A DNA stretch of 64,000 nucleotides from Pseudohongiellaceae bacterium (GCA_041751425.1 JBGSXL010000013.1:78586-142585), one strand, 5' to 3'; positions 19,101 through 64,000 are shown, counted from the stretch's first letter. Numbers and translations: made by a program. The notes: generated from the sequence alone by a model not told the origin.

Positions 19101-19143
19101 GTGCGTAATTCTGCGGGTGGGTTTTGTGCTGAGCTGCGTCCGG

Positions 19144-19201: not shown

Positions 19202-19805
19202 AAGCTTCGTTGAACGGGATGAACATGTTCGATTCCAAATATTGCCACTGCTCATCCCAGAACTCAGTGGGCAGCCGCTTGAACTCGCTGCGCACAAACT
19301 GCATCAGGCGCCCCTCGGCTGTCGCCAATAACAGGTCAGCCATTACAGCTGCGGAGATTGTAGTTTTCAGGTTCTCGCGGATCTGCGCCTCACGCAGAAT
19401 CTGTTTCAGTTGCGCCTCAATTCTATCGAACATCTGCATAATGCGGATTCGCAATCTCTCCGTTTCACCGGTTAATGCATCGCCCGTCATCAAGCGCGTC
19501 ATGCCCGGATTTTTTTCCGCGAATGTCAGCAGCAGAGTCAGAATTTTTTCACAACGTTTAGTTGCAGTGCTTTCTTCTACCAGAATACGGTTAATGCGGA
19601 TGAACAAAGTATCTTCGATAAACTTGATCAGGCCCTCGAACATTTTTGCCTTGCTTGGAAAGTGACGATAGAGCGCCGCCTCAGATACACCAACTTCGCG
19701 CGCCAGTGCTGCAGTGGTAATGCGACCTCCCGGGCCGGTTTCCAGCATGCGAGCCAAGGCTTGCAAAATGTTTTCCTTGCGGGAAATTTTCAGTTCGGTT
19801 GCCAT
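19200..19805 (-). CDS. slmA: nucleoid occlusion factor SlmA (TetR family)
   Basis: [40 protein letters not shown] closely matches the E. coli SlmA HTH region. Confidence 0.85.
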
Positions 19806-19854
19806 GGGTGATTTTCAGCCTCTGCTATCTATCTATTAACGATGCTACGTAATT

Positions 19855-20793
<939 letters not shown>

Positions 20794-20876
20794 TCAATTC
20801 ATTGGGTGTAAAGCAGTTGGTTTGTTTGCGCAGAGTATACAGAACACAGCAATTATTTCATCAGTCGGGGCACTCT

Positions 20877-24335: not shown

Positions 24336-24421
24336 AACGGCAGCATTTATTGTGCGACTTCCCGCCGATAGCGATAACTCGGTACAATGCGGCTTTTGCT
24401 TAATTGCACGAAATACAAAGG

Positions 24422-49345: not shown

Positions 49346-50161
49346 TCAAATTTGACATTGCGGGCAGTACACGGTGCTGCGCTGTCCGATGCGAATTTCT
49401 CGCAATGCGCTGTGGCAACTAAAGCATGGCAGCCCTTTGCGGCCGTATACCTGTAACGATTGTTTGAAATAACCGGGTTGCCCCGTGCCGCCGACAAAAT
49501 CCCGCAATGTTGTTCCACCCATAGCGATAGCGCCTGCCAGAACATGTTTGATATTGCCAACCAACTGCGTGTAGCGCGGCGCTGCGATGCGCCCGGCTGC
49601 TCTGCGCGGATCAATACCGCTCATGAACAGGGCTTCATTGGCGTAAATATTCCCCACGCCAACCACGACATTGCTGTCCATGATGAAAGCCTTGACAGGC
49701 ATCTTGCGACCTTTCGCACGTTCCCGCAGGTAGGCCAGGTTGAAATCATCGGTCAGGGGTTCAGGCCCCAGGTGTTTGAGCAGGGGGTGTTGGCCAGGAT
49801 CTGACGCACACCAAAGGATGCAGCCGAAGCGGCGTGGATCAGTATAGCGCAACGTCTTGTTATGATTAAAAACGATGTCAACATGATCATGTTTTCCCGC
49901 AAGCGTGCCGGTCGTCACAATCCGCATACTTCCTGACATGCCCAGATGAACGATAAAGCACGCTTTGCCGGTATTGATTATCAGGTACTTGCCGCGTCTT
50001 GCGACAGACAGAATCGAATGTCCCGGCAATTCGGTGGCGAGCTCGGGGCTGACGGGCCAACGTAATTGCGACTGGCGAATGATGACCTCTAAAACGGTTT
50101 GCTTCACTACATGCGGTGCGATGCCGCGACGGGTGGTTTCTACTTCGGGTAATTCGGGCAT
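49346..50161 (-). CDS. mutM: formamidopyrimidine-DNA glycosylase
   Basis: N-terminus MPELPEVET and a C-terminal zinc finger (CFSC..CPQCQ). Confidence 0.95.
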
Positions 50162-50325: not shown

Positions 50326-51894
50326 GTGAATATTCTAACTACCAATGAGACGCTTCAAAGTGTCGGCATACCCTTCTCCGGAGTATTGCTGGTTCTTGCT
50401 CTGCAAGCTGCAGTTTTTACCCCGGTTTACGCTCAACAGGTAACTGCGCAGCTGGCAAACACACAGCGGTCGGGTGATTCACAAACAGCCAGCTCGGCCC
50501 AGGCTGCCACTGAGCGCGCAGCCGACGCGACAGATATTGACCAAACAAACGTACAATCTGTAGAGCAGGCTATAGTGCCAATCTCTGCCGTAGGTATAGG
50601 CAGACCTATACCTCTGAGTGAGTTTATGGAACCGCTTCTGTTACCCAGTCTTTTTTCGGAGGCGCTGGATGACGAGGATGCGATGTTGTCCGCAGCTGTT
50701 GCAGCGGAGCAGGCTCAGAGCCTGCCGGATCTGCAGTCCTTGAGCGAAGATGAGGCGTTCATGCAGCGCCAGCTGGATATCACCAGTTACGAGGAATTGC
50801 TGGAAAACATGGAGTTGCAGGGCGGCGCCTGGGACCAGACCTTGTCCGAGGAGTTGATGTCGCTGGGTGATTTACTGCAACAGCAGGGCGATTTTAATAG
50901 GGCGTTAGATGTTTACACACGTGCCGCTCACATCAACAGAATCAACCATGGCTTGATCAGTGTGCAGCAGGTCGAACCCATAGAACGAATTGTTGACACC
51001 CATATCGCCATGAATCAGTGGCAGGAGGCGGACCGCCAGCAACGCTATGCGTTTTATGTTCAGTCACGTGCCTATGATCGTGCTGATCCGCGCCTGATTC
51101 CGGCATTAGACAAACTGGCCAACTGGAACCTGGCTACTTCCAGGCAGGGTCTGGAAGGCGAGCCGATCATCAGAATTCTGGAGGCATACCGACTCTATAA
51201 TGCAGCAGCTGCGTTGGTGACAATTCATTTCGGCAGAAGCGACCCCCGTTATGTCAGTTACCTGAAAAACATGACACAGGCGGCGTACCGCCTGGCGGCA
51301 ATTGGTTCCCAGAATGAAATTGACCGCGCTCTGGTGCGTAATGTGAGCGATACCATCAATGTAAGTTCTGTAACAGGTACGCCGGCAAGTCGTCTGAATG
51401 GTTTCGTGGAGGGCGAACAGGCGTTACGCAATATATACGAATTGTATTCTTCAGAGCGCATGAGTAGTCTAGAGGACATTCCCCAACGACGGGCGCATGC
51501 GATGGCGGAGCTGGGGGACTGGTATCTGCTGTTCAATCGCCGTCAAACCGCATTCCGATCTTACAGAGAGGCTTATGACATATTAGCGGAAGAAGGTCCA
51601 GAACAACCAGCGTTGCTGTTTGACCAGCTCGTGTCTTTGCCGGGTTTTATCGACACCAATCAGGCCCAGCTCTATGAAGGGTTTCAGCAGGGTTATGTCG
51701 ATGTGATCATGGACATAAACCAGTACGGCAGAACCAGTAGTATTGATGTGCTTGCGGTCTATCCGGAAGTTGAGTCGCGCGCGAGCTCTGATGTGGTTCG
51801 CCGGGCACGTATGATGACATTCCGGCCGCGGCTCGATGAAAGTGGTCCAGTCATGACCCGCGGTGTCCGTATGCGGTTTCCGTATTGGTATTGA
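50326..51894 (+). CDS. secreted TPR-like protein with a TonB_C-like C-terminal domain
   Basis: Signal peptide (VFTPVYAQQ), helical repeat region, and a C-terminus (GYVDVIMDINQYGRTSSIDVL...VVRRARMMTFRP) fitting the TonB C-terminal pattern. Confidence 0.6.
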   Translation: MNILTTNETLQSVGIPFSGVLLVLALQAAVFTPVYAQQVTAQLANTQRSGDSQTASSAQAATERAADATDIDQTNVQSVEQAIVPISAVGIGRPIPLSEFMEPLLLPSLFSEALDDEDAMLSAAVAAEQAQSLPDLQSLSEDEAFMQRQLDITSYEELLENMELQGGAWDQTLSEELMSLGDLLQQQGDFNRALDVYTRAAHINRINHGLISVQQVEPIERIVDTHIAMNQWQEADRQQRYAFYVQSRAYDRADPRLIPALDKLANWNLATSRQGLEGEPIIRILEAYRLYNAAAALVTIHFGRSDPRYVSYLKNMTQAAYRLAAIGSQNEIDRALVRNVSDTINVSSVTGTPASRLNGFVEGEQALRNIYELYSSERMSSLEDIPQRRAHAMAELGDWYLLFNRRQTAFRSYREAYDILAEEGPEQPALLFDQLVSLPGFIDTNQAQLYEGFQQGYVDVIMDINQYGRTSSIDVLAVYPEVESRASSDVVRRARMMTFRPRLDESGPVMTRGVRMRFPYWY

Positions 51895-51983
51895 GTGCCA
51901 TAAAACCGCCGAAATTCCGGTCTAGCACGTGACTATCTTTGCAACTGGCTATGCAATTGGGCCAAGGCTATTGGGAGCTTGAA

Positions 51984-53132
51984 ATGAAAACCGTTATCGT
52001 AAAACAGCTGATCAGCATGAGTGCCATGGCATTGTTGCTTGCCGCCTGTGAGTCCTCACAGCAACAACAGTCCAGCCAGTCAAGTATGCCGAGTATGCCA
52101 AGCTCATCGTCGTCTTCGTCTTCGTCGTCATCGCCATCCATGCCAAGCAGTTCGAGCAGCAGTCCAAGCAGCTCGTCATCGATGCCGTCCATGCCATCTT
52201 CGTCGCAATCTTCCTCACAATCCAGTTCGCCAAGCATGCCAAGCTCATCGTCGCAGGGCTCCCGTTCATCGCCCTCCATGCCGTCCAGCAGTAGTTCAAG
52301 CAGTAGTTCAAGCAGCTCGTCTTCTGCAAGTAATCCCGGACAGACCTCGGCCAATGCCGGAAGCACCAGCAGCACGAGCGGAGGCAGCACAGCAGCTGCA
52401 AGCAGCTCTGCAGGAGAGCGAGGAGGTCAGCCTGGCTCTCAAGGTAGTGATATGCCGACATCTGACCGAGGGGAATTTGGTCGAGGTGGCACCTATACGC
52501 TGGATAATCTACCCGGAAGCAATGCATCGGGGCAGGGCACTGATACCGCTGCAGGACCTGCTGGCTCAGGCGGTACTGGAACTGATCCAGCAGGGGCAGG
52601 GTCTACAGCAGCTGCGACCGGGTCAGCACAGGGTTCTGTCAGAGCCGGTGCTGCGGGTGGCGCAGCTCCCGGAGGGGTCATGACTGGCGCGGAACGCGTT
52701 GCTGTTCTGGATGGCGCCCTGAACGGTGCCTTTGGTGATTTTGATGGCTTTATTCTTGCCGAACGAGCGCGTGCGCAAGCGCAAAGTGCCGCAGTTGGCG
52801 ATGATCCTGCCGGATTGAATCAGGAAACAGGAGCGGGAGGCGCTGGTGGTCAACAACCGATAATTCTTGCGGGTGGGGGTGGTGGGTCTGGACAAGGTGT
52901 CGGATCTAACACTATGCCCGGGACTGGTCAGGGTGCCGGTGGTGCTGGTTCACGAGTAGCCACAGGTGGCGACTCTGTTGAAACGTTCCCACCGCCCGAA
53001 GACATTCCCAGTGGTCGTGATGACGATGTGGTTGCCAGACAGTTGCGAGAAGCCGCTATGCGTGAACCTGATCCGGAGTTACGCGAAAAGTTGTGGGATG
53101 AATATCGTGTGTACACAGGCCTGTCGCGCTAG
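51984..53132 (+). CDS. Ser-rich / Gly-Ala-rich low-complexity lipoprotein with a conserved acidic C-terminal helix
   Basis: Lipobox (LLAAC). About 100 aa of S(n)MPS repeats are followed by a G/A/S/T-rich region and then PPPEDIPSGRDDDVVARQLREAAMREPDPELREKLWDEY. Confidence 0.65.
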   Translation: MKTVIVKQLISMSAMALLLAACESSQQQQSSQSSMPSMPSSSSSSSSSSSPSMPSSSSSSPSSSSSMPSMPSSSQSSSQSSSPSMPSSSSQGSRSSPSMPSSSSSSSSSSSSSSASNPGQTSANAGSTSSTSGGSTAAASSSAGERGGQPGSQGSDMPTSDRGEFGRGGTYTLDNLPGSNASGQGTDTAAGPAGSGGTGTDPAGAGSTAAATGSAQGSVRAGAAGGAAPGGVMTGAERVAVLDGALNGAFGDFDGFILAERARAQAQSAAVGDDPAGLNQETGAGGAGGQQPIILAGGGGGSGQGVGSNTMPGTGQGAGGAGSRVATGGDSVETFPPPEDIPSGRDDDVVARQLREAAMREPDPELREKLWDEYRVYTGLSR

Positions 53133-53181
53133 ATCGCGCTTTTTAAGTTGACGGGCAGCAATAAACAAGCAGGTGGTTACA

Positions 53182-54372
53182 ATGATGGTCATACAACGAA
53201 TATATTCAAAACTGTTTCTTACTGCGGCATGTATGCTGTTTATAAGTGCGTGCTCTACCACTTCAGTTCGTAGCACCGAGTTTGTGCGTGTTGTGCAGGA
53301 TGCGACACCAATGAACGAGGACCTGCTGCTTGATATCGGCATTACAGTTTTTGATCCGGGTATTGATGAGATTGCACGTCGCGACGTGGACCGCACCAAT
53401 CTGGAAATTCGGCGTGCCGAATCCCGCTATGCACCTTATCTACTGGTTGAAACGCTGGAGCGCTCAGGCAACTGGGGTGTGGTGCGGTTGATGCCAAACA
53501 AGTTCAGCAATTTCGATGTGATATTGGATGGGCAGATCCTGCTTTCCAACGGCGAATCAATGATTCTGAAAATTACTGCCAGCGATTCTACAGGCAGAGT
53601 CTGGTACACCAAGGAGTATGAGGAAGAGATCAGTCAGTTCAGTTATGACCAGACTCAGCGTCAGGCCAATGACCCTTTCCAGGTGATCTATAACAATATT
53701 GCGAATGACCTGCTGGAATACCGTAAACGCAATTTTAACGAGGCAGCGTTGCGAAATATTCGTTCAGTGACCGAGCTGCAGTTTGCCAAAAGTTTTGCGC
53801 CCGATATTTTTTCTGAGTATCTGACAACTGACAACCGTGGTATTACATCCGTAGTACGCTTAACTGCAGAAAATGATCCTTACATGGAGCGTATGCGGGA
53901 AATTCGTCAGCGCGATAATCTGTTTGTGGATACCGTGCAGGATTACTACGCAACCTACGCGCGCGAAATGCGCGGGCCTTACGATGCCTGGCGCGAACAA
54001 AGTTATCATGAGACGCTGACTCTGGAGGAGGTGGAGCGCTCAGCGCGGCGTCGCTTCATATTAGGTACGGCAGCGCTGGTAGGTGGTATTGCTGCGGCAG
54101 GCAGCAACAACGCAGCGGTTCGTACTGGCGCAATTGTTGGCGTGGGTGCTGGTGCTTATATGGTTAAAAGTGGTTTTGACAGAACCGCTGAAGCCAGAAT
54201 ACATATTGAAGCCCTGCGCGAGTTGGGTGAATCGCTGGAAACTGCGATTGCACCAAAAGTTATCGAATTGGAAGATCGCACCATCATGCTGAACGGAAAC
54301 GTTGAGGAGCAATATGCACAGTGGCGAGAAATTCTGGTAGAGATTTATCGGACTGAGATTGGTGAGATCTAA
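53182..54372 (+). CDS. lipoprotein with a C-terminal glycine-zipper hydrophobic segment
   Basis: Lipobox (LFISAC) and GTAALVGGIAAAGSNNAAVRTGAIVGVGAGAYM near the C-terminus. No family recognised. Confidence 0.6.
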   Translation: MMVIQRIYSKLFLTAACMLFISACSTTSVRSTEFVRVVQDATPMNEDLLLDIGITVFDPGIDEIARRDVDRTNLEIRRAESRYAPYLLVETLERSGNWGVVRLMPNKFSNFDVILDGQILLSNGESMILKITASDSTGRVWYTKEYEEEISQFSYDQTQRQANDPFQVIYNNIANDLLEYRKRNFNEAALRNIRSVTELQFAKSFAPDIFSEYLTTDNRGITSVVRLTAENDPYMERMREIRQRDNLFVDTVQDYYATYAREMRGPYDAWREQSYHETLTLEEVERSARRRFILGTAALVGGIAAAGSNNAAVRTGAIVGVGAGAYMVKSGFDRTAEARIHIEALRELGESLETAIAPKVIELEDRTIMLNGNVEEQYAQWREILVEIYRTEIGEI

Positions 54373-54374
54373 GC

Positions 54375-55862
54375 ATGACCGAACCAGAAAAAGGTTTCAC
54401 AGCGACGCCCATCGCAACGGAAAAATTACCGGCATGGATATGGGTAGCACTTGGCGCTCTAGTGGTAGTTGCGTTGGCGGTAATATTTGTATTGCCGCGT
54501 ATTGTCACAGAGTATGAACTGCCACTAACGCGCCGCCCGGCCGGTAGTGAAGTACCCATAGCGGTGCAAACGAATCCCACGCCCATTACCGCAATTTCCC
54601 CGTTTGATGAAGCGCAACGCGCAAGAGAGCGCGCCGAGGCACAGGATGCGTTAGCCAGTTTGTTAACGCAGCAGCTTGCTCTGGATGAAACAGGCGCTGA
54701 CGATTGGGCGCAGACGGAATATGCCGAAGCAGTTGAATTTGCGCGTCTGGGTGATGAGGCGTATCGAACGCAGCAGTTCGAACTGGCGAGACAGAATTAT
54801 CAACAGGCTGACGATATATTTCGTGATTTGATTGAATCCATGCCGGCAGTTATTGCGGAAGCGGTAACGAAAGGCAATCAGGCGTTGGAGCAGGGCGATT
54901 CCGCGGAAGCGGAACGGCAGTTCACGCTGGCATTGCAGTTGGAGCCGGGCGCCCCCGAGCATGAAACAGGTTTGCAAAGAGCGCGAACTCTGGATGAAGT
55001 GCTGGGTCTGTTGCGTGAAGGCAGACGTCTGCAGGCAGCCGGTCAATTGCAGGATGCGCGCACCCAGTTGCAGCAGGCTGTCACGCTGGACAGCTTCCAT
55101 CAACCAAGCCGGGAAGCGTTGGAGCAAATCAGAGTTGCGATAGCAAATCAGGATTTCGCTGGTGTCATGTCAGAGGGTTTTGCCGCTCTGCAGAATAATC
55201 AGCCAGAGCAGGCTATCACGATTTTCCAGCGTGCACTGAGCATGCGGCCCAATTCACAGCAGGCGCAGGAAGCACTGACCCAGACCCGTGACCAGATTGC
55301 GATTCGCAAAATTACACAGCATCAGAACGCTGCAAATAATTTTGCAGCGTCCGAGCAGTGGCAACAGGCGGTGGCTGAATATGATGCTGCTCTGGCGGTA
55401 GACAGTAATCTCGTGTTTGCCAGCGAAGGCAAAGATTATGCGCAGAAACGTGCGCAATTGGAACTGTTGTTAGAAGACGCCATCGCTAGACCATTGCGGC
55501 TTGCTGAACCAGCGGTGTATGAACAAACGGTTGGCGTTTACTACGCCGGGCGGGATCTGGAATCTCCGGGCCCCCGTTTACAGGGACAACTGGATACTCT
55601 GGAGGTCATTCTGCGCGAAGCGCAAATTCCCGTAGAAGTGCAGTTGGTTTCAGACAATGCCACGGAAGTTATGCTGTATCAGGTTGGTAGCTTGGGGCAA
55701 TTCACCTCCCAGGTATTAAGCCTGCCACCCGGGCAGTATGTTGCAGTGGGAACGCGCCCCGGCTATCGCGATGTGCGTAAAGAATTTGTGGTCGGATTCG
55801 GAAACGAGCCACAGCCCATTACGATTCAATGTAATGAACTCGTGGCAGTAAACAGGCGTTGA
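54375..55862 (+). CDS. membrane-anchored TPR-repeat protein
   Basis: Starts 3 nt after the upstream stop. It has an N-terminal TM (WIWVALGALVVVALAVIFVL) and several TPR-like A..Y..AL..P repeats. Confidence 0.7.
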   Translation: MTEPEKGFTATPIATEKLPAWIWVALGALVVVALAVIFVLPRIVTEYELPLTRRPAGSEVPIAVQTNPTPITAISPFDEAQRARERAEAQDALASLLTQQLALDETGADDWAQTEYAEAVEFARLGDEAYRTQQFELARQNYQQADDIFRDLIESMPAVIAEAVTKGNQALEQGDSAEAERQFTLALQLEPGAPEHETGLQRARTLDEVLGLLREGRRLQAAGQLQDARTQLQQAVTLDSFHQPSREALEQIRVAIANQDFAGVMSEGFAALQNNQPEQAITIFQRALSMRPNSQQAQEALTQTRDQIAIRKITQHQNAANNFAASEQWQQAVAEYDAALAVDSNLVFASEGKDYAQKRAQLELLLEDAIARPLRLAEPAVYEQTVGVYYAGRDLESPGPRLQGQLDTLEVILREAQIPVEVQLVSDNATEVMLYQVGSLGQFTSQVLSLPPGQYVAVGTRPGYRDVRKEFVVGFGNEPQPITIQCNELVAVNRR

Positions 55863-55866
55863 ATCG

Positions 55867-57999
55867 ATGCAGGACAACCGTAAAGAAAATTCGCTGGACG
55901 ACGATGCACTGGAACCAGCTGCTTTTGAACCCATAATCCCCATTGATTTCAGCCCACCCGCTGAAAGTAAAACCGGATTCAAGTTTCGCTTCAACGTCAT
56001 GCATGCGGTCATCGTATCCTTTCTGGCAGTGGCGGGCACTGCTGCCTGGTTTGTGCTGACGGCCAGCTCCGTTTACGTGCAGGCTGATCCCCTCACGGCA
56101 AGCGTTGAATTCAGTTCCGGATTTAATGTAAAAGTCGGACAACGCTATTTAATGCGACCGGGCACTTATGGCGTTGTTCTGCGCAATGAGGGATATCACG
56201 ATTCGGTGGTGGATATCGAAATAACCGATCAGGCTGCACAAATTCATTCCATTGCCATGCAACCGCTGCCGGGTTTGATCCAGTTTTCCGTAACCGCAAG
56301 AAATGGCAGATCAGACGCCGATTTTCCCGCTACAGGCGCCAGAGTCATGATTGACAATGTTGATCTTGGCAGCACGCCACTGGCGCAATTGGAGATTGAG
56401 CCGGGCGACTACGAAATGGTCGTCACACTTGATCGTTATCTACCTTATCGACAAAGCATCAGTATTGCTGGTCGCTCGCAGGAACAGACGTTCAGCGCGG
56501 AGTTGGCACCTGCATGGGCTGATGTCAGCTTCAATACAGAACCTCCCGGCGCCGATGTGATCGTGGGAGGGGAGTTGATGGGAGTGACGCCCATCCGTGC
56601 CGAGGTGTTACAGGGAGCTCATGAAGTTACACTGAAACTTGCGGGACACAAAGCCTGGCAGGACGATTTGCGTGTGGAGGCAGGAGAGGAAAGAACTGTA
56701 CCACTGGTGACTCTGGAGCGCGCCGACGGTCTGGTGTTCATTCGCTCTGAGCCTGGCAATGCTAATGTCACCATCAATGGCGACTTTAAAGGACAGACAC
56801 CTTTGGAAGTTGCGCTGGCTCCGGGGCAACAGCATCAGATAACGTTGTTCCGCAGTGGTTTCAACACAGCCACCCGAACCGTGCGCACCAATCCGGATGA
56901 AGAAAGTGATATCACGATTGCGCTGGTGCCAATTACAGCATCGGTGGATATCAGGGCTGAGCCAGCCGATGCAGAATTATATATCGATGGTGAGCTTCGT
57001 GGCACCGCCAATCAAACGGTGCAGTTGCTGGCCGCCAGCCAGCGCGTGGAAATTCGTAAGCAGGGCTTCGTTCCTTATGCAACAACATTTATTTCACGAC
57101 CTGGTCTTGAACAGGAAATCAGAGTCAGGTTGAAGTCGCTGGAGCAGGCCCGCATTGAAGCTATCCAGCCGGTCATTACCACTGCTGCCGGACAAACACT
57201 GAAACTGTTTTACCCGAAAGAATTCACGATGGGAGCTTCGCGTCGGGAGCCTGGTCGTCGCGCCAATGAAACATTGCGCGATGTCATTCTGGAGAAGCCG
57301 TTCTACCTGTCCCTGCACGAAGTGACGAACGCCCAGTTCAAACGCTTTCGCCCTGATCATAGCTCTGGAACTTTGCAGGGAAGATCGCTTGACCTGGACA
57401 CGCAACCGGCGGTGCAGGTCACCTGGTTGGACGCCGCTTTGTACACCAACTGGCTAAGCCAGCAGGAATCATTGCAGCCGTTTTATCAAGTGGTTGATGA
57501 CGAAGTGGTTGGCGTCAATGCCAACTCTAATGGTTATCGTTTACCTACGGAAGCGGAGTGGGAATGGGCAGCTCGCACAGATGCAGACGGTAACGGAAGT
57601 TTGCGCTTTCCCTGGGGTGAACAACTGCCACCACCGGAGAAGTCAGGCAATTTCGCCGACCGCTCAGCCAGTACTTTCCTGGGCCAGTACATGACGGATT
57701 ACGATGACGGTTTCCTGAGCAGCGCTGCCGTAGGCTCCTTCAATCCCAATGCGAAAGGACTGTATGACCTCGCAGGCAATGTGTCAGAGTGGGTGCATGA
57801 TATTTACGGCGCTGTGGGCACCCTGAGCTCGGTGAAAGAGGTAGACCCTCTGGGTCCGGATGAAGGACGCTTTCGTACCATCAAAGGTTCAAGCTGGGCG
57901 CACAGTGCGATTACCGAGTTGCGACTTTCTTATCGCGATTTTGGAGAGGAAGCGCGCAATGATTTGGGCTTCCGTATAGCGCGTTATCTAGGGGAGTAA
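55867..57999 (+). CDS. membrane-anchored PEGA-repeat protein with a C-terminal FGE-sulfatase (SUMF1/GldJ/GldK-like) domain
   Basis: One TM, then about 4 PEGA-like modules (V.IDG...G.TP). The C-terminus has FTMGAS..., GYRLPTEAEWEWAAR, GLYDLAGNVSEWV, IKGSSW and LGFRIAR, typical of the FGE-sulfatase fold. Confidence 0.8.
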   Translation: MQDNRKENSLDDDALEPAAFEPIIPIDFSPPAESKTGFKFRFNVMHAVIVSFLAVAGTAAWFVLTASSVYVQADPLTASVEFSSGFNVKVGQRYLMRPGTYGVVLRNEGYHDSVVDIEITDQAAQIHSIAMQPLPGLIQFSVTARNGRSDADFPATGARVMIDNVDLGSTPLAQLEIEPGDYEMVVTLDRYLPYRQSISIAGRSQEQTFSAELAPAWADVSFNTEPPGADVIVGGELMGVTPIRAEVLQGAHEVTLKLAGHKAWQDDLRVEAGEERTVPLVTLERADGLVFIRSEPGNANVTINGDFKGQTPLEVALAPGQQHQITLFRSGFNTATRTVRTNPDEESDITIALVPITASVDIRAEPADAELYIDGELRGTANQTVQLLAASQRVEIRKQGFVPYATTFISRPGLEQEIRVRLKSLEQARIEAIQPVITTAAGQTLKLFYPKEFTMGASRREPGRRANETLRDVILEKPFYLSLHEVTNAQFKRFRPDHSSGTLQGRSLDLDTQPAVQVTWLDAALYTNWLSQQESLQPFYQVVDDEVVGVNANSNGYRLPTEAEWEWAARTDADGNGSLRFPWGEQLPPPEKSGNFADRSASTFLGQYMTDYDDGFLSSAAVGSFNPNAKGLYDLAGNVSEWVHDIYGAVGTLSSVKEVDPLGPDEGRFRTIKGSSWAHSAITELRLSYRDFGEEARNDLGFRIARYLGE

Positions 58000-58005
58000 A
58001 TACAA

Positions 58006-58308
58006 ATGCTCAAAAAAAGAAATTGTCTGGTAGCAACATTATTACTATTGCTGACGATTGCATTCTTTGGCGCGCAAAGTGTTTTGACAACAGCTATGGC
58101 GCAAACCCAGGACCAACAAATTCAAACTGACGCCCAGGCTGAAGCGCAGGCAGAATCGGAACCAGAAGCTCAAGCAGATGCGGATAATCCGCTTGAGCTG
58201 GCTGAAGAATTAGATGGTGTTCTGGATTCACAACAGGTAAGCGGCCGCTTCATACCCACCGAAGAAATATCACAGGATCTTGGCGTCTCGTTTCCAGTAG
58301 ACATTTAA
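58006..58308 (+). CDS. small secreted acidic protein
   Basis: Signal peptide (LLLLTIAFFGAQSVLTTAMAQ) and an AQAEAQAESEPEAQADAD acidic stretch. It is tightly packed in the operon. Confidence 0.5.
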   Translation: MLKKRNCLVATLLLLLTIAFFGAQSVLTTAMAQTQDQQIQTDAQAEAQAESEPEAQADADNPLELAEELDGVLDSQQVSGRFIPTEEISQDLGVSFPVDI

Positions 58309-58336
58309 CCAGCAAATAAAGAAGGCAAAGAGTGGC

Positions 58337-59227
58337 ATGAAACAGAATTATCTCTCGGAAGTGATTTATCAGATCTTTGCGCTGATCATTGTCGTGATTG
58401 TGGTGCACGCAGTTTATGTCGCGGTCATTCGGCCCAATGCCGATTTCGTCCAGGAACAGCAGACACTGATGACAGAGGCCGATGAGAATTACGTGCCAGA
58501 ACGCTCCCTTTACATTGTGCTGCGTGATTTCGAACAAGAGACCTGTATCATTCTGATGTTCTGGGCTCTCGCAATCATCGGCATGAAAACTCAGCGCACT
58601 ATAAGAGAGCGTCGATTGCTGGATCGTATGCTGCTGCAGGTGTCGGAAGGTACGAGTATTTTGCCGGAAGATGCACGCCAATATGCGCGGCCGGTGCAGG
58701 CCTTACCGGAGAAGGAGCGCAGATACCTATTACCGCGTGCCATACTCAGCGGATTGCATCGCTTCGGCACCACACGCAGTATTCAGGATGCAGCAGCAAC
58801 CATCAAGGACATGTGTGACAACGAGTCAGAGCGGTTGGAAAGTGAACTGGCCATCGTCCGTTATATTGCATGGGCAATTCCCTCCATCGGCTTCCTTGGC
58901 ACAGTGCGTGGTATCGGTACAGCGCTGGGTCAGGCCCATCAGGCAGTCAGCGGCGACATTTTGGGCGTAACAGTCAGTCTGGGTGTTGCTTTCAATTCTA
59001 CATTCGTTGCACTGGTAACCAGTATTCTGCTGATGTTTCTTTTGCATCAACTGCTGTTGGTACAGGATCGTCTAGTGCTGGACACGCAAGGTTATTGTGA
59101 CGAGCATTTGATTCGTTATCTGCAGGTGCCAGAGCGCGACAGTTTTGATCGCGGCGCGGCTCCTGCCGTCGCTACCACCACTACCGGCACCTCAGCGCCC
59201 TTAATCAATCCAGGTGCTCCCGCATGA
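58337..59227 (+). CDS. MotA/TolQ/ExbB-family proton-channel protein
   Basis: IAWAIPSIGFLGTVRGIGTALG and LGVAFNSTFVALVTSILL match the conserved ExbB/TolQ TM2-TM3 signature (APFIGLFGTVWGI ... IAEALIATAIGL). Confidence 0.8.
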   Translation: MKQNYLSEVIYQIFALIIVVIVVHAVYVAVIRPNADFVQEQQTLMTEADENYVPERSLYIVLRDFEQETCIILMFWALAIIGMKTQRTIRERRLLDRMLLQVSEGTSILPEDARQYARPVQALPEKERRYLLPRAILSGLHRFGTTRSIQDAAATIKDMCDNESERLESELAIVRYIAWAIPSIGFLGTVRGIGTALGQAHQAVSGDILGVTVSLGVAFNSTFVALVTSILLMFLLHQLLLVQDRLVLDTQGYCDEHLIRYLQVPERDSFDRGAAPAVATTTTGTSAPLINPGAPA

Positions 59228-60486
59228 CAATGAAAGTGCTGGAACTCAATGACCATGGCATCAGCATCGGTGACGAAGCTGGAGTACTTGCGACAAGTCC
59301 CGGTTACGCTGTTGCTATAGGCAAAGAGCTTGAGTTCGGCAATATTGCGGCCAGCAAAAGCAAATTGCACCCGGTAACCAGCTCCAATGAATTCTGGCAC
59401 AGGCTGGGCATGGAACCGCTGGCCCGACCAATAGCGCATTATCGTCACTATGCTGATATCGCCTACTCGCACCTGATGCATCTGGCAGAGGAAGTTGCGC
59501 TGGCTGGAGACGTAATCATTGCCGTGCCAGGCAGTTTCTCACGTCAGCAGTTGGCGATACTTCTGGGATTGATCAAACAGAGTCCTTTTCGCGCAGCAGG
59601 CTTGATCGATACTTCGGTGGCGGCGACGGTAGATACTTTCCATGCACAGTCCACCAGTGATGTCGTGGTGTATGCGGACATGCAATTGCATCAGGTAATT
59701 CTGACGCAGTTGCGTTTGCGTGATAACGAATTGGTGCGTGAGTCGGTGACGCAGGTGCCAGGTGTTGGTTGGTCGAATCTTGCCGACAGTCTGGTGCAAT
59801 TGATAACGGATGCCTTCATACAGCAAAGCCGTTTCAACCCTCAACACAACGCGCGTTGGGAACAGCACATGTATGACAGTCTGCCCGGCTGGCTGGCGCA
59901 GGGTTCAGATACTGATAATAATTTGTTGTTGCAGATTCAAACGGATACTGCCTTGCATCAGGCCAAACTGACGCGCTCCAGTATTGTGGCGCGATTGCAG
60001 CCTTTCTATCGCAAGATCAGTCAGCATCTGCATGAACTGCCAGGTAAAAGTGGGCAGATACTGATGGCAGAACGCTTTGCTGTTTTGCCGGGCTTGCGCA
60101 GCGCTTTGGAAGGTGGAGGAGAGCTGGTGCAGGAATTCGTGTCCAGTCACGCCGTGATTTCATCGTGCCTGCGTTACCAAGATCAGCTAATTGGCAATGG
60201 CGAGAACGTGAACTTCACAACGCGGCTGCGTCCAGAACTGCAATCGGTACAACATGATAAACATTCGCACAGGCAAGTCGGTGCTACTCATTCGCAGAAT
60301 AGAAAAAGCCTGGCGCAATTGGGCCAGCACGAAGGACAACTGATTCTGCATAACAGCGAGCCGGGCTGGCTGGTCAATGGCAAGCCTGTCGCAGCAGGTC
60401 ACATACTGCAACCAGGGGATATGTTGCATTTCGCTGACATCCGGCAAGCGTTGCAATTAGTGCAGGTGCAAGATGGCCAGCAATAA
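59224..60486 (+). CDS. degenerate Hsp70/actin-fold-like cytoplasmic protein with an FHA-like C-terminus
   Basis: IIAVPGSFSRQQLAILLGLIKQSPFRAAGLIDTSVAA parallels Hsp70 (AVITVPAYF..QR.A...A..IAGL....I.EP.AAA). The phosphate-1/2 motifs are not conserved. The C-terminus is WLVNGKPV..GHILQPGDMLHF. The ATGA overlaps the upstream gene. Confidence 0.55.
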   Translation: MTMKVLELNDHGISIGDEAGVLATSPGYAVAIGKELEFGNIAASKSKLHPVTSSNEFWHRLGMEPLARPIAHYRHYADIAYSHLMHLAEEVALAGDVIIAVPGSFSRQQLAILLGLIKQSPFRAAGLIDTSVAATVDTFHAQSTSDVVVYADMQLHQVILTQLRLRDNELVRESVTQVPGVGWSNLADSLVQLITDAFIQQSRFNPQHNARWEQHMYDSLPGWLAQGSDTDNNLLLQIQTDTALHQAKLTRSSIVARLQPFYRKISQHLHELPGKSGQILMAERFAVLPGLRSALEGGGELVQEFVSSHAVISSCLRYQDQLIGNGENVNFTTRLRPELQSVQHDKHSHRQVGATHSQNRKSLAQLGQHEGQLILHNSEPGWLVNGKPVAAGHILQPGDMLHFADIRQALQLVQVQDGQQ

Positions 60487-61576
60487 GAGAAAGCGACGTG
60501 GCACATTCGACCCACTGACGCTGGCGTTTCTGGACGTAATGTCCTGTGGCTTTGGCGCCGTGGTGCTGATATTTCTGATTCTGGATCATACGTCCACGGA
60601 ACGCCAAAATGAGAGTGACCCCGTTCTTTCTGCTGAAGTGTCTTTGCTGGAAGAAGAAATCCTGCAAGGTGAAGAACAGTTGGTAAGAATTCGCAATGCC
60701 CTGAACGACGTCAGTCTTGAAGTTGTAACCGCCCAGGGGCTAGCCAGCCGCATGCAAACAGAAATAGAAGATTTCCTGCAGCAACTGGCCGAACTGGAGG
60801 GGATCAGTCTGGGCAGTGAAGAAAGTCTGGAGCAGTTGCGTGCCGATGTGCGATCGCTGGAGGAAGACATACTGCGTCTGCAGACCACGGCGGTAGTAGA
60901 AACAGGTGATGACGCCCGCGAGTTTATAGGTGAAGGTGACAGGCAATATCTGACCGGCCTGTTTCTGGGTGGGAATCGTATTCTGATATTGCTGGATATG
61001 TCAGCCAGCATGATGGACGAGACGTTGGTCAACATCATCCGCACGCGCAATATGCCGGATGCCTCCAAAAAAGTAGCGCGTAAATGGCAACGCGCTGTGA
61101 AAACAGTGGATTGGATCACCAGTCAGTTGCCGTTGGGCAGTCAATACCAGATTGTCGCCTTCAACAACCAGATAAAGCCGGTTGTACCAGGCACAGAAGG
61201 AGTCTGGTTGGAAGTGGCAGACAGGGATGGACTTAATGCCGCCATGCGCCATGTGCAGGATCTGGTGCCGGCTGAGGGTACCAATTTACAGCAGGCTTTT
61301 CAGGCTGTATCGGATCTTAGTCCGCGACCTGACAATATATATTTGATAACCGATGGTCTGCCAACCTTGTCCAACCGGGCATCGTCCAGTAGGCTGATAA
61401 CACCGGAGGACAGACTGAAGTTGTTCGAGGATGCCGCTGAGTTCCTGCCCCGCAATATCCCCGTCAATATCATTCTGTTTCCACTTGAGGGTGACCCCAG
61501 TGCTGCAGCAGCCTATTGGGTGCTTGCGCAAAGCACAAGAGGGTCTTTTATGAGTCCATCACGGGACTGGCCATAA
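60473..61576 (+). CDS. ExbD/TolR-like TM helix + coiled coil + vWA domain protein (paralog 1)
   Basis: Basic N-terminus, then LAFLDVMSCGFGAVVLIFLIL with Asp at 60533-60535. A heptad-rich region follows, then vWA MIDAS elements (DMSAS, GTN, TDG). Confidence 0.7.
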   Translation: MASNKRKRRGTFDPLTLAFLDVMSCGFGAVVLIFLILDHTSTERQNESDPVLSAEVSLLEEEILQGEEQLVRIRNALNDVSLEVVTAQGLASRMQTEIEDFLQQLAELEGISLGSEESLEQLRADVRSLEEDILRLQTTAVVETGDDAREFIGEGDRQYLTGLFLGGNRILILLDMSASMMDETLVNIIRTRNMPDASKKVARKWQRAVKTVDWITSQLPLGSQYQIVAFNNQIKPVVPGTEGVWLEVADRDGLNAAMRHVQDLVPAEGTNLQQAFQAVSDLSPRPDNIYLITDGLPTLSNRASSSRLITPEDRLKLFEDAAEFLPRNIPVNIILFPLEGDPSAAAAYWVLAQSTRGSFMSPSRDWP

Positions 61577-62571
61577 TGCGTAGAAAACGTCAGGCAGAAG
61601 GAGCAGGCATCGCATTTCTCGACGTCATATCCTGCGGGTTTGGCGCCATCATCCTGTTGCTGATGATTACTGAAAGCTCTGCCCCTGTCACACTTGAGGT
61701 GACTACGGACGCCGAACGGCCCGTGGCGGAGCTACAGCAGGAATTATTCGCTATACGCGGCGAAACTGCCATTGTGAACCGTGATCTCAATGCCAAGCGT
61801 GAGCAGCTGTCCGCTTTTCAGCAGAGACTGGCCATCCTGCAACGTGAACGCAATATGGTCCAGGCCCGCTATCGTGCCTCAGTGGATATGTCCGACGAAG
61901 TCGTTGACGAAGAAACCCGTCTGGCTATCGCCAAACAATCGCTGACCGCAGAGATGCAGCGCCTGTTGGGGGAAGATTTTACCCGCAGCAACGATCTTGT
62001 AGGAGGTATCCCTGTAGATAGTGAATACATTATCTTTGTGATTGATACTTCCGGTAGTATGTATCAGGCCGCCTGGAGAAAGATGCTCGATATCGTGGTG
62101 GAGACTCTGGATATTTATCCGGAAGTCAAAGGCATACAGGTGATGAATGACATGGGTGAGTACATGTTCAATTCATACCGCAACCAGTGGATCCCGGATA
62201 CTCCCGGACGGCGCAACGCCATTATCAGCACTTTGCGCAACTGGAGTCCGTTCAGTAACAGCAGCCCGGTGGAAGGGGTGACGCGAGCCATCAGTTCGTT
62301 CTACGCGCCGGACAGGAAAATAAGCATTTATGTGCTGGGCGATGACTTCCAGCCGGGTGGTTCGATTTCACAGGTGATTCAAACCATCGATAGAATCAAT
62401 CAGGCGGACGCCGATGGTAATCGCATGGTAAGAATTCATGCCATCGGCTTTCCAGTAATTTTTTCACTGCAGCCGCGCTTCCATCAGAGCGCTTATCGCT
62501 TTGCCAATCTGATGCGAGAGTTGACACATAGAAACGGTGGCACTTTTGTAGGATTGAATACTTTCGAATAG
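61576..62571 (+). CDS. ExbD/TolR-like TM helix + coiled coil + vWA domain protein (paralog 2)
   Basis: MRRKRQ...IAFLDVISCGFGAIILLLMI with Asp at 61621-61623, then a coiled coil and vWA elements (IFVIDTSGSM ... VLGDD). The TAATG overlaps paralog 1. Confidence 0.7.
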   Translation: MRRKRQAEGAGIAFLDVISCGFGAIILLLMITESSAPVTLEVTTDAERPVAELQQELFAIRGETAIVNRDLNAKREQLSAFQQRLAILQRERNMVQARYRASVDMSDEVVDEETRLAIAKQSLTAEMQRLLGEDFTRSNDLVGGIPVDSEYIIFVIDTSGSMYQAAWRKMLDIVVETLDIYPEVKGIQVMNDMGEYMFNSYRNQWIPDTPGRRNAIISTLRNWSPFSNSSPVEGVTRAISSFYAPDRKISIYVLGDDFQPGGSISQVIQTIDRINQADADGNRMVRIHAIGFPVIFSLQPRFHQSAYRFANLMRELTHRNGGTFVGLNTFE

Positions 62572-62594
62572 TCATTCATTACAGGGCTTCGCCA

Positions 62595-63251
62595 ATGAGT
62601 TTGATAGCGATTGGAAACACAGCAAGTAAATGCACACTCAATCTGCTGCCGCAGTTTCGCCGGATTTTGCTGCTGCTTGCAGTGTTGAGCATGAGTGCTT
62701 GCGGTGTCAGCTCCGTCACTGTGTCCGGTAGTTATCCCACTCCCAACATTGACAGAATTCCACTTAGCCTGGGCGTCTATTATGACGATACCTTGCGTGA
62801 GCATGCCTATATTGAATACACGGAAAACGGCAATGAAGAGTATCGGGTAGCCAGTGGCGATTCGCATATCGATTTGTTCGCCTCCATTCTGCCGGCCATG
62901 TTTGATCGCGTGGTGTTGCTGAATGACCCGGAGGGCGGCAGCGCGGCCGGTGTTGATCTGGTATTCGCTCCGGCCATAGAAGAGTTTCAACTGGCGCTAC
63001 CACAGAAAACCAGGCTCGACGCCTACGAGGTGTGGGTGAAATACAATATGCGGCTTTCGGCACCTGATGGTGGGTATATTGCTGACTGGGTGTTAACCGC
63101 TTACGGCAAAACATCACAGGAAGGGTTCAGCTCCGTAGAAGCCGGGATAAACAATGCGGCGGTCTCAGCGTTGCGAGATCTGGGATCCAATTTCGCACTG
63201 ACTTTTACCAGTGTGCCTGACGTCAGGGATTGGCTGAATTCCCGTTTGTGA
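62595..63251 (+). CDS. lipoprotein, hypothetical
   Basis: Lipobox (LSMSAC), operon position, no recognised family. Confidence 0.6.
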   Translation: MSLIAIGNTASKCTLNLLPQFRRILLLLAVLSMSACGVSSVTVSGSYPTPNIDRIPLSLGVYYDDTLREHAYIEYTENGNEEYRVASGDSHIDLFASILPAMFDRVVLLNDPEGGSAAGVDLVFAPAIEEFQLALPQKTRLDAYEVWVKYNMRLSAPDGGYIADWVLTAYGKTSQEGFSSVEAGINNAAVSALRDLGSNFALTFTSVPDVRDWLNSRL

Positions 63252-63261
63252 GGAGTAAGTT

Positions 63262-63921
63262 ATGAAAGCGGTATTCATGAAGATCAGTGCGCTGATATTA
63301 CTTGCGCTGATGAGTGCCTGCACTACAACCACGATTGATGAGTTCCGGCAGGGTGAAACCGGTATCGAAAGCCACGAGTCAATTGTTCTGCTGGGTCGCA
63401 GACAAGGCAGCAACTACGAGACGCGTGCAGAGTTTGTGGAATGTGTAGGCGATAGAGTAAAACGTGGCACGGGTGGCATCAATGTCATCCCGGAGCAGGA
63501 GTTCGTTGATGCCATGTTCCCTTGGTTTGAACCGCGTACAGCACCGATGCGCAGCACTGACATGCAGGTGTTGATGGAACAACCACAGGTAGCTCAGAAA
63601 ATCTCAGATTATGGTATTCGATATATTGTCTGGCTGGATGGTCAGACTGAGACCAGCAACCGGGTGGGCTCCATTTCCTGCACGGTGGGTCCGGGTGGTG
63701 GCGGTTGTTTCGGTTTTGGTTCCTGGGAAGATGATTCCAATTTCGATGCGCGAATCTGGGATGTGAATTCCTTCGTCAATGTTGGCGTAATCAGTGCTGA
63801 CGCGACTGGTCAGTCTTACCTGCCGGCTATTGTGGTGCCCATTCCCCTGATAGCGAGGGTTGAAGCCAACGCCTGCAACAGTCTTGCCGAGCAGCTTAAA
63901 CAATTTGTGTACGGTAATTGA
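63262..63921 (+). CDS. lipoprotein, hypothetical
   Basis: Lipobox (LMSAC), operon position, no recognised family. Confidence 0.6.
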   Translation: MKAVFMKISALILLALMSACTTTTIDEFRQGETGIESHESIVLLGRRQGSNYETRAEFVECVGDRVKRGTGGINVIPEQEFVDAMFPWFEPRTAPMRSTDMQVLMEQPQVAQKISDYGIRYIVWLDGQTETSNRVGSISCTVGPGGGGCFGFGSWEDDSNFDARIWDVNSFVNVGVISADATGQSYLPAIVVPIPLIARVEANACNSLAEQLKQFVYGN

Positions 63922-63940
63922 GAAGAAGCGGGGTGACACC

Positions 63941-64000
63941 ATGTTCCGACTCACAGTAGTTTTTTGTTGCGCCAGCTTGTTACTGGGATTGAACTCCTGT
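63941..64000 (+). CDS. lipoprotein, hypothetical (5' fragment, runs off the window)
   Basis: MFRLTVVFCCASLLLGLNSC is a signal peptide plus lipobox, 19 nt after the previous stop. Confidence 0.4.
   Translation, partial: MFRLTVVFCCASLLLGLNSC

Follow-up and report, generated by a model that had tools for sequence, protein, structure and literature searches.

A conserved 13-gene cluster from Pseudohongiellaceae that probably encodes a motor-driven machine of the cell envelope

What kind of machine is encoded by a block of 13 co-oriented genes in which a proton-channel subunit of the MotA/TolQ/ExbB family is accompanied by two membrane-tethered proteins with von Willebrand factor A (vWA) domains? 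The block lies at one end of a stretch of 64,000 nucleotides from a Pseudohongiellaceae bacterium (GCA_041751425.1 JBGSXL010000013.1:78586-142585); this whole stretch was analysed and is called the window here. From position 50326 to the window end there are 12 complete plus-strand genes and the first 20 codons of gene 13, numbered G1 to G13. Besides the channel (G7) and the vWA pair (G9 and G10), they encode an Hsp70-fold protein (G8), proteins with tetratricopeptide repeats (TPR), a protein with PEGA and FGE-sulfatase domains, a small secreted protein with a conserved tail and five lipoproteins, the last of which is an M48 metalloprotease. Our analyses indicate that the product of the cluster is probably a machine that spans the envelope and is powered by a proton-motive-force (PMF) motor of the 5:2 type represented by MotAB, ExbBD and TolQR. 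Ion-driven 5:2 motors power flagella, TonB-dependent uptake, the Tol-Pal system, gliding together with the type IX secretion system (T9SS), and Zorya defence, and each newly found output of such motors has so far been a significant discovery.

The probable motor core and its paired vWA subunits

Three genes carry the case for a motor:

G7, 58337..59227, plus strand: MotA/TolQ/ExbB-family proton-channel subunit, the presumed pentameric stator
G9, 60473..61576, plus strand: short basic N-terminal tail, transmembrane (TM) helix with Asp21, helical stalk of ~90 residues, linker and vWA domain
G10, 61576..62571, plus strand: paralog of G9 with the same architecture, TM Asp16 within FLDVISCGFGA, and DTSGS in the vWA domain

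An earlier note on this DNA had proposed a MotA/TolQ/ExbB-type channel, and G7 indeed matches MotA_ExbB (PF01618) at an E-value of 9.9e-13 with 48.4 bits, above the cut-off of 22.9. A profile of 16 G7 orthologs matched TolQ structures in the PDB (E 2.6e-4); single G7 and G9 sequences found no match among PDB sequences, and the G9 profile found coiled-coil proteins only. The G7 segments GFLGTVRGI and AFNST align with GLFGTVWGI and LIATAIG of TolQ, the regions of its T145 and T178. These residues, like T148 and T181 of ExbB, are the pore-lining threonines of the last two TM helices. In G7 the two threonines are T189 and T222, both invariant in 16 sequences that include other phyla, and the protein as a whole is 67-88% identical in the related loci described below.

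The vWA assignment of the two paralogs, likewise proposed in the earlier note, was borne out by profile and by structure. G9 matches VWA_2 (E 2.7e-10, 41.2 bits, cut-off 27), with D175, S177 and S179 forming its DxSxS motif. Its AlphaFold 2 (AF2) model consists of helices at residues 15-45, 50-110 and 116-137 and a vWA domain with a pLDDT above 90; Foldseek matched this model to the vWA domains of ITIH1, BatB, CLCA1 and integrin (E 1e-7 to 1e-5). The direct VWA match of G10 is weak, and its assignment is by paralogy to G9, whose orthologs are matched by the G10 hidden Markov model (HMM) at E 1e-25 to 1e-40. In distant phyla G10 has orthologs of its own (E 1e-52 to 1e-107). The two paralogs can be traced separately across phyla; their duplication is therefore ancient and both copies have been retained, which fits an obligate heterodimer.

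The single TM helix of each paralog contains the motif FLDVxxCGFGA, FLDVMSCGFGA in G9, and this motif does not vary among the G9 and G10 proteins of the window's lineage. Its Asp codons lie at 60533 (G9 D21) and 61621 (G10 D16), where the earlier note had placed them, and the Asp is retained by 83 of 84 G9-type and 77 of 79 G10-type proteins of distant relatives. The DxSxS motif of the metal-ion-dependent adhesion site (MIDAS) is also invariant in G9 and G10 within the lineage, the Thr and Asp positions of the site being judged by eye. Among the distant G9-type proteins it is found in 58 of 84, and degenerate forms (RxSxS, ExSxG, QxTxA) occur in 25 of 84. The TM Asp is nearly invariant, whereas the MIDAS is degenerate in ~30% of G9-type proteins; the motor helix appears to be under stronger selection than the binding of ligands through a metal ion.

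Neither G9 nor G10 contains the periplasmic domain of ExbD/TolR or an OmpA-like peptidoglycan-binding domain; a stalk and a vWA domain are found instead. In addition, no ExbD, TolR or MotB gene was present in any of more than 100 loci, in all of which G9 and G10 follow the channel gene and adjoin either that gene or G8.

Organisation, conservation and spread of the operon

The core genes are part of a closely packed series on one strand, with the following junctions:

G3/G4, 54372/54375: gap of 2 nt
G4/G5: gap of 4 nt
G5/G6: gap of 6 nt
G6/G7: gap of 28 nt
G7/G8, 59224: ATGA overlap
G8/G9, 60473: 14-nt overlap
G9/G10: shared TAATG, with the ATG of G10 at 61576

G8 is translationally coupled to both G7 and G9. 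The gene coordinates and junctions agree with the earlier note, which had described a same-strand cluster of at least 13 genes and one operon continuing past 64000. The continuation was found on a Logan contig (locus L001) that is identical to window positions 62704-64000 (1297 nt, 0 mismatches) and supplies the 3' end. G13, which starts at 63941, is the last of the 13 genes, and the operon ends ~1.4 kb beyond the window end. On the contig G13 is followed by an unrelated 2-hydroxyacid dehydrogenase gene, which is not found beside the cluster elsewhere. The upstream neighbour is:

mutM, 49346-50161, divergent from G1

The G + C content of the cluster is similar to that of its flanks. Scans of the cluster against Rfam and for tRNAs, promoters and terminators gave no RNA genes and counts at the level of shuffled sequence, with terminators not above chance.

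A relative of G8 is encoded by 209 GTDB species representatives. Judged by their titles, most of these are Pseudohongiellaceae, OM182 and other Pseudomonadales, or gammaproteobacterial metagenome-assembled genomes (MAGs) without further classification. Synteny was examined in the best 80 loci obtained by tblastn and extraction of open reading frames (ORFs), 49 of which are at least 20 kb long. All 49 are colinear and on a single strand; every gene except the low-complexity G2 is present in 47 of them, and G2 as well in 30. The overlaps are also kept, the median gaps in relatives being -4 nt for G7/G8, -8 nt for G8/G9 and -1 nt for G9/G10. Protein identity to the window genes is 54-88% in the closest species-representative locus. 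The mutM gene adjoins the cluster in about 20 fetched loci; since the flanks vary between lineages, the unit extends from G1 to the M48 gene. This conservation is far beyond chance, and the cluster is a real, strongly conserved unit.

The family of G9 extends well beyond these relatives, with 1299 clusters at 50% identity at E-values up to 1e-3 and 321 at E-values up to 1e-30; named members come from Halioglobus, Steroidobacteraceae, Desulfofustis and the Opitutaceae (Oleiharenicola, Lacunisphaera, Actomonas and Synoicihabitans). A search of 85 distant loci with an HMM for each of the 13 proteins showed an invariant order MotA-(G8)-G9-G10, in which MotA denotes the channel gene, and two architectures. 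Type A loci have G2-G3-G4-G5-G6-G7-G8-G9-G10, at times followed by G11-G12-G13. Type B loci, which are Opitutaceae-like, begin with three divergent small genes, one of them for a Gly-zipper lipoprotein, and continue with G7-G8-G9-G10; their 3' part comprises two conserved genes that received no assignment, a G4-like TPR protein, an M48 gene and sometimes a true TonB_C protein. A core composed of the TolQ-like gene, the vWA pair, a TPR protein and usually a PEGA-FGE protein is shared by Gammaproteobacteria, Desulfobacterota and Verrucomicrobiota. The Hsp70-like gene usually accompanies this core and is missing in some lineages. The cluster is conserved as a unit in other genomes, as the reading of the earlier note required, and the core also recurs in other phyla. 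A tblastn search with G9 in plasmid and phage collections gave no match.

In the Verrucomicrobial locus L085, genes with SLATT and TIR domains (18907-21065) lie ~8 kb downstream of the motor locus; they are probably an unrelated defence island.

Elsewhere the window contains a T2SSE/MshEN-type secretion ATPase gene (4461-6749), a TonB-dependent receptor gene with a Plug domain (16596-19076) and a gene for a 1460-aa multi-domain glycosyltransferase (24404-28786), all of which are unlinked to the cluster in other genomes. In locus L002 a T2SSE/MshEN gene and glycosyltransferase genes stand directly downstream of the M48 gene. A gene for an M13 peptidase lipoprotein at 40890-42983 is split: the ORF at 40890-42518 stops directly after HEITHGFDD, and the remainder of the catalytic domain is read in another frame (42603-42983). 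This gene is either a frameshifted pseudogene or the product of an assembly error.

Periplasmic, cytoplasmic and lipoprotein parts

Three genes upstream of the channel encode proteins that are predicted to reach into or enter the periplasm:

G4, 54375..55862, plus strand: inner-membrane-anchored periplasmic TPR protein with one N-terminal TM segment and a C-terminal beta domain
G5, 55867..57999, plus strand: TM anchor, four PEGA domains and an FGE-sulfatase-fold domain
G6, 58006..58308, plus strand: 100-aa secreted, acidic, disordered protein with the conserved end RFIPTEEISQDLGVSFPVDI-COOH

G4 matches TPR_2 at E 1.6e-15, and its HMM found orthologs in Verrucomicrobial and other distant loci at E 1e-52 to 1e-76, making it part of the cross-phylum core. 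G5, which the earlier note had correctly described as a PEGA-FGE protein, contains four stretches matching PEGA (E 1.5e-48) and a domain matching FGE-sulfatase (PF03781; E 4.5e-40, 244 of 255 profile positions), with orthologs in distant type A loci. Its C-terminal segment KGSSWAHSAITELRLSYRD, when compared by eye, has no Cys at the catalytic positions, which presumably correspond to the catalytic cysteine pair C336/C341 of human SUMF1. The best NCBIfam match of G5 was GldK/PorK (E 5e-29), at 101.9 bits against a cut-off of 350, and GldJ scored 47.8 against 458. A TonB/TolA-like SHLS-type helix was considered for G4 and G5 and rejected, as the single His of the G5 helix is not conserved.

The last 20 residues of G6 are nearly invariant in 74 orthologs. 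In the 85 distant loci 34 of 11,437 ORFs end in [FLIVM]P.D[ILVM], and 31 of these 34 are a small ORF directly after the PEGA-FGE gene. The consensus of the tail is F-x-P-[ST]-E-x-[IV]-x-x-D-x-x-[VI]-x-F-P-x-D-I-COOH. Examples of such G6-like ORFs are:

L087, 4183-4488
L088, 7561-7854
L169, 8894-9172
L086, 6874-7632

Type B loci have neither G5 nor G6, and the motif is absent where the PEGA-FGE gene is absent. In L087 the G6-like ORF remains beside G5, with two genes between it and the channel gene, so the linkage is between G5 and G6. A C-terminal FPxDI motif of a small secreted protein that is linked across phyla to an FGE-fold gene is new here. The core F-x-P-[ST]-E resembles C-[TS]-P-[SA]-R, the recognition core of sulfatases, and one hypothesis is that the G6 tail may bind the groove of the G5 FGE-fold domain. 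Alternatively, the tail may be captured by a TPR carboxylate clamp or by a MIDAS.

The gene between the channel and the vWA pair encodes a cytoplasmic accessory protein:

G8, 59224..60486, plus strand: cytoplasmic protein with the fold of the Hsp70 nucleotide-binding domain (NBD), degenerate nucleotide loops and an FHA-derived C-terminal beta domain

G8 had no match in Pfam or NCBIfam, and neither a single sequence nor a 29-sequence profile matched the PDB. The AF2 model (pLDDT 85.2, pTM 0.75) was matched by Foldseek to NBDs of Hsp70, Hsp110 and Ssz1 in all of the top 50 hits (E 1e-16 to 1e-14, 12% identity), with target-normalised TM-scores of 0.41-0.72, or 0.64-0.72 against isolated NBDs. 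The degenerate Hsp70/actin-fold protein proposed in the earlier note was therefore recovered by structure. Membership of G8 in the Hsp70 family proper (PF00012) was rejected, as hhalign aligned the G8 family with the DnaK NBD over 27 columns only, at E 0.097. At the places of the phosphate-2 and adenosine loops, located by register and by eye, the G8 family has ADxQLHQV and SxRxxxLPG; these replace the corresponding Hsp70 motifs, DLGGGTFD and GGxxRxP. With the glycine-rich loops replaced, ATPase activity of G8 is doubtful. G8 also has no Hsp70 substrate-binding domain, its C-terminus being an FHA-like beta domain.

For this FHA-like tail the evidence comes from orthologs: the L086 ortholog matches FHA (PF00498) at E 7e-12 and the L087 ortholog matches Yop-YscD_cpl at the cut-off, and the FHA profile has no match in the G8 of the window. 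In the window copy ~45 residues that most orthologs possess are missing at the start of the FHA-like domain (60240-60300, residues ~340-360), and the linker that is left has a pLDDT under 50. This copy has probably lost the half of the domain that binds phospho-peptides. G8 is the least conserved gene of the cluster (35-47% identity in related loci). It is absent from L169 (Desulfofustis-like, 9186-12133), L152, L153 and L168, where the channel gene abuts or overlaps the first vWA gene. Because G8 is missing there while the channel gene and both vWA genes are intact, it is a widespread accessory subunit outside the minimal motor.

In locus L086 (1834-4410, 8466-10004 and 13023-16964) a Ser/Thr kinase is fused to a G4-like TPR protein, a second kinase carries Laminin_G and FGE-sulfatase domains, and the G8 homolog has a canonical FHA domain. 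This combination of domains suggests that the motor may be phospho-regulated in the L086 lineage.

The remaining genes, at the two ends of the operon, are:

G1, 50326..51894, plus strand: 522-aa secreted TPR protein with a possible TonB_C-like C-terminus, first gene of the unit
G2, 51984..53132, plus strand: Ser/Gly/Ala-rich low-complexity lipoprotein, lipobox LLAAC, with a conserved C-terminal ~50 aa
G3, 53182..54372, plus strand: ~396-aa lipoprotein, lipobox FISAC, with a Gly/Ala-rich hydrophobic segment at ~295-335
G11, 62595..63251, plus strand: ~200-aa lipoprotein, lipobox SMSAC
G12, 63262..63921, plus strand: ~215-aa lipoprotein, highly conserved, with FPWFEPRTAP and four conserved Cys
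G13, 63941..64000 and on to window-equivalent 65401, plus strand: 486-aa M48 metalloprotease lipoprotein, BepA/LoiP-like

G1 had been described as a TonB_C/TPR protein. The TPR part holds, being sub-threshold in the window copy and matched in 19 of 20 orthologs; TonB_C (PF03544) is unmatched in the window copy and weakly matched in 3 of 20 orthologs (best E 6.7e-4). A true TonB_C protein (E 3e-23) is encoded beside the M48 gene in L085. In a MAG named RIFCSPLOWO2_02_FULL_57_10 (L003, 1326-2744) the G1 ortholog has an internal stop and was called as two genes; it is intact on a near-identical ENA contig (L004, 1302-2744), and the stop is probably an assembly error.

Lipoboxes with a conserved Cys are present in G2, G3, G11, G12 and G13, which makes five lipoproteins, one fewer than the minimum of six given in the earlier note. 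G2 and G3 also occur in distant type A loci, and neither has a Pfam or NCBIfam match; G3 is 56-74% identical in related loci, and by eye its hydrophobic segment looks like a glycine zipper. G11 (53-68% identity in related loci) was found among the distant loci only in those of gammaproteobacterial type A. G12 is 61-81% identical in related loci, with 67 invariant columns in 20 sequences. G11 and G12 had no match in the profile libraries.

G13 matches Peptidase_M48 (PF01435) at E 1.4e-39, and its HEIGH (HExxH) motif is conserved in 63 orthologs. Against the BepA model it reached E 7e-37 and 127 bits with a cut-off of 570, and it is not a BepA equivalog. The gene is present in related loci wherever the contig extends to it, and it is near the core in Verrucomicrobial-type loci. 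The earlier note had seen no evident effector; an enzymatic component is encoded just past the window end.

Proposed mechanism, alternatives and known systems

The core described here has a published counterpart. A class of TM-tethered vWA genes that tightly co-occur with tolQ homologs in the absence of tolR or exbD was predicted in Proteobacteria and Verrucomicrobia, with Idiomarina loihiensis as the exemplar (PMC12204202). The vWA proteins of this class mostly form heterologous pairs and have a TolR/ExbD-like trans-pore helix whose conserved Asp lies beside a Thr ring; AlphaFold 3 modelling placed the paired Asp helices inside a TolQ-like pentamer, beside this ring (PMC12204202).

From the families, folds, conserved Asp and Thr residues, synteny and spread reported above, we infer the stoichiometry, rotation, partners and output of the machine as follows. 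G7 would form a TolQ-like channel ring, presumably a pentamer. A heterodimer of G9 and G10, in a system with no separate ExbD or TolR, would place two Asp helices across the pore as a central axle, which would be rotated or pulled by protons passing the Thr/Asp site. The stalks and flexible linkers would carry the two vWA heads into the periplasm, so that axle and transducer would be one polypeptide. The heads would grip a partner, for which G4, G5 with G6, and the lipoproteins are candidates, and perform mechanical work near the outer membrane. G8 would most likely dock from the cytoplasm and serve as a regulator or clamp, phospho-regulated in lineages that have added kinases and dispensable where it is absent. 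As the output we suggest, with low confidence, that force is used to help remodel proteins of the outer membrane or periplasm or to control their quality; this is favoured because the M48 protease is the sole enzyme of the set and recurs in both architectures.

Several points weigh against a PMF-driven machine of this kind. The function of the published class is called unknown, and no phenotypes are reported for its members (PMC12204202). The cluster encodes no outer-membrane barrel, no peptidoglycan-binding domain and no obvious substrate. M48 is missing in L088 and L169, and proteolysis is thus not a universal output; metal-mediated gripping is not universal either, given the degenerate MIDAS of many G9-type proteins, and nor is the Hsp70-like gene. 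At the level of sequence statistics, ExbD/TolR (PF02472) had no match in G9 or G10 at E-values up to 0.1, and hhalign of the G9 family with the E. coli TolR and ExbD sequences gave E 0.39 and 0.71 with the TM segment unaligned. G9 and G10 were not filed under the ExbD family because the helix is too short for statistics, and their assignment as ExbD/TolR-type partners comes from motif and context. In the ExbD/TolR-style helix of the earlier note the conserved Asp is borne out; statistical homology of the helix to ExbD/TolR could not be shown.

A more specific version of the mechanism is possible but doubtful. It holds that the vWA-heterodimer axle works an assembly of G5, G6, TPR proteins and lipoproteins, that proteins extracted or remodelled by this assembly are passed to the M48 protease, and that G8, as a pseudo-ATPase with a phospho-threonine reader, gates the motor. 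If it were true, the extraction machine would add a fourth physiological role to those of the Ton/Tol/Mot-type motors and would be present in three phyla or more.

The alternative that the cluster encodes a surface-adhesion or gliding apparatus, in which an Agl-Glt-like or GldLM/PorLM-like motor moves the vWA heads along a track of the FGE-fold protein and so drives movement over surfaces or the trafficking of adhesins, appears improbable to us. It would account for the best NCBIfam match of the G5 FGE domain, GldK/PorK at E 5e-29, and for the lack of Cys at its catalytic positions, a feature of GldK, PorK and GldJ as well. A TolQ-like motor is combined with vWA and TPR proteins in Agl-Glt as well, CglB being a vWA lipoprotein (PMC9946355), and gliding has been raised for related vWA transducers (PMC12204202). 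However, the GldK score is 102 against a cut-off of 350, Pfam and NCBIfam revealed no homologs of GldL, GldM, GldN, SprA or Glt proteins, the vWA domains are held at the inner membrane by their tethers rather than exposed at the surface, and the cluster encodes neither an outer-membrane channel nor a secreted adhesin. In addition, the hosts include planktonic marine lineages, to judge from the names of MAGs labelled OM182, TMED and SAR86, and we know of no gliding in planktonic lineages of these types.

We also consider it improbable that the cluster specifies a static scaffold or signalling complex, in which G7 would be ion-conducting or regulatory and G9 and G10 would act like BatA and BatB, for example in sensing stress or in aerotolerance, with no force being produced. 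The structural similarity of the G9 vWA domain to BatB (3ibs, E 5e-7) points in this direction, as do the TPR proteins, which are present in Bat operons too (the BatC TPR model is marginal, E 0.014), and the FHA domains and kinases of relatives, which suggest signalling. Yet the MoxR ATPase and DUF58 partners of Bat operons are not present, and a helix Asp that hardly varies, combined with pore threonines that are conserved, is the hallmark of 5:2 motors that work. The lower conservation of the MIDAS than of the TM Asp also speaks for a motor.

A platform of the PilM-PilN-PilO kind, with G8 bound to the tails of G9 and G10, lipoproteins as links, and the other parts of a secretion or fibre system encoded elsewhere, is very unlikely. 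G8 has an actin-superfamily fold, and the order of an actin/Hsp70-fold gene, two stalked bitopic paralogs and lipoproteins mirrors that of pilMNOP. But no locus has a secretin, pilin, T2SSE ATPase or platform protein in or beside the cluster, the T2SSE gene of the window being 45 kb away; G8 is missing in lineages with channel and vWA genes intact; and neither the channel gene nor the TM Asp would be explained.

A Zorya-like anti-phage system with a MotAB-type motor as envelope sensor is hardly credible: Zorya has a MotA/MotB-like 5:2 complex too, and TIR/SLATT-domain genes lie ~8 kb away in L085, but PADLOC gave no match for G7 or G8 and only coiled-coil matches of G9/G10 to LmuB/Ppl (E ~2e-3), neither a nuclease nor any other effector is encoded, plasmids and phages yielded no homologs, and the cluster is found in the 209 GTDB species representatives, beside mutM in about 20 fetched loci and at the G + C content of its flanks. 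Readings of the cluster as a defence island or mobile element were also rejected, on the results of PADLOC and of the plasmid and phage tblastn search.

The preferred reading, a PMF-driven envelope machine, can now be set against known systems, the nearest of which is the predicted class of vWA transducers. Linkage to a tolQ-like gene without tolR or exbD, vWA pairs, an Asp helix with a Thr ring and the range of phyla were all found again here, independently. In the text and supplements of the publication that were consulted, by contrast, there is no mention of Hsp70, an FHA domain, PEGA, sulfatase or M48, nor of lipoproteins for this family of vWA proteins (PMC12204202); the locus studied here adds a fixed 13-gene context and the G6 tail. 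The shared defining features suggest that the cluster belongs to this class; no Idiomarina member was found among the cluster names examined. Literature searches for the combination of parts, and for Pseudohongiella, led to this publication only. The statement of the earlier note that no known system has this composition consequently applies to experimentally characterised systems and not to the motor core, which was predicted in 2025; its novelty is reduced because that prediction has been published (Mol Biol Evol 2025, PMC12204202).

In common with ExbB-ExbD-TonB and TolQ-TolR-TolA, the cluster has a channel of the same Pfam family, the pore threonines, a partner with a single TM helix and an Asp of the essential type, translational coupling and periplasm-spanning partners. 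The helix also shares the local motif F-[IL]-D-V-M with ExbD, which has PFIDVM. In contrast to these systems, the periplasmic domain of ExbD/TolR is absent and the Asp subunit itself carries a stalk and a vWA head; two different paralogs replace the homodimer; an Hsp70-fold cytoplasmic subunit is present; and no TonB-dependent receptor, TolB or Pal is encoded in the cluster.

With GldLM/PorLM of the T9SS it would share an inner-membrane motor of the 5:2 type and a central dimer whose long periplasmic arm is directed toward FGE-fold proteins, GldK/PorK being the best match of G5. The FGE folds of GldK/PorK and GldJ are non-catalytic. However, G7, G9 and G10 have no sequence relation to GldL or GldM, the GldK score is far under the cut-off, and G5 is anchored in the inner membrane through its PEGA domains, whereas GldK/GldJ-type proteins are outer-membrane lipoproteins; PorN, Sov/SprA and T9SS cargo signals are also lacking.

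The Agl-Glt motor likewise has two different TolR-like subunits, AglQ and AglS. Further likenesses are a TolQR-type motor, a large number of lipoproteins and TPR proteins, and a vWA domain at the end that bears the force. In that system the vWA domain belongs to a separate outer-membrane lipoprotein, the adhesin CglB (PMC9946355), whereas here it is fused to the Asp helix; Pfam and NCBIfam gave no Glt homologs, and the matches of G4 to TraC and FlcA are generic TPR matches. PilM-PilN-PilO and GspL-GspM resemble the cluster in having an actin-superfamily gene before two bitopic paralogs with coiled-coil stalks, followed by lipoproteins. They differ from it in that the heads here are vWA and not ferredoxin-like, a proton-channel gene precedes, the helices carry Asp, pilus and secretin genes are absent, and no homology was shown. 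G13, finally, is comparable to BepA, LoiP and YcaL: its protease domain is closest to BepA (E 7e-37) and LoiP, with an intact HExxH and a lipoprotein signal. Its C-terminal 230 residues, however, are not the TPR domain of BepA, its scores are far below equivalog cut-offs, and it is the last gene of a motor operon.

For experiments, the 13-gene parts list, the minimal cross-phylum core and the two mutable Asp codons provide starting points, together with a candidate enzymatic output (M48), a candidate regulator (the Hsp70-fold/FHA protein) and the FxP[ST]E...FPxDI-COOH peptide, and Pseudohongiella acticola, whose G9 ortholog is PHACT_08540, and Oleiharenicola lentus are culturable hosts. Should the machine work mechanically on proteins of the outer membrane, it would be relevant to the question of how energy reaches that membrane in diderm bacteria. 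By its features the system falls outside Ton, Tol, Gld/Por, Agl-Glt, Bat, PilMNO and Zorya. Compared with the predicted class, it adds a defined list of 13 genes, a subunit with an Hsp70 fold and an FHA-derived domain, an M48 protease and a conserved tail motif, none of which is described in the parts of that publication consulted (PMC12204202), and it is an experimentally uncharacterised, multi-phylum member of a recently predicted motor class that is worth experiments.

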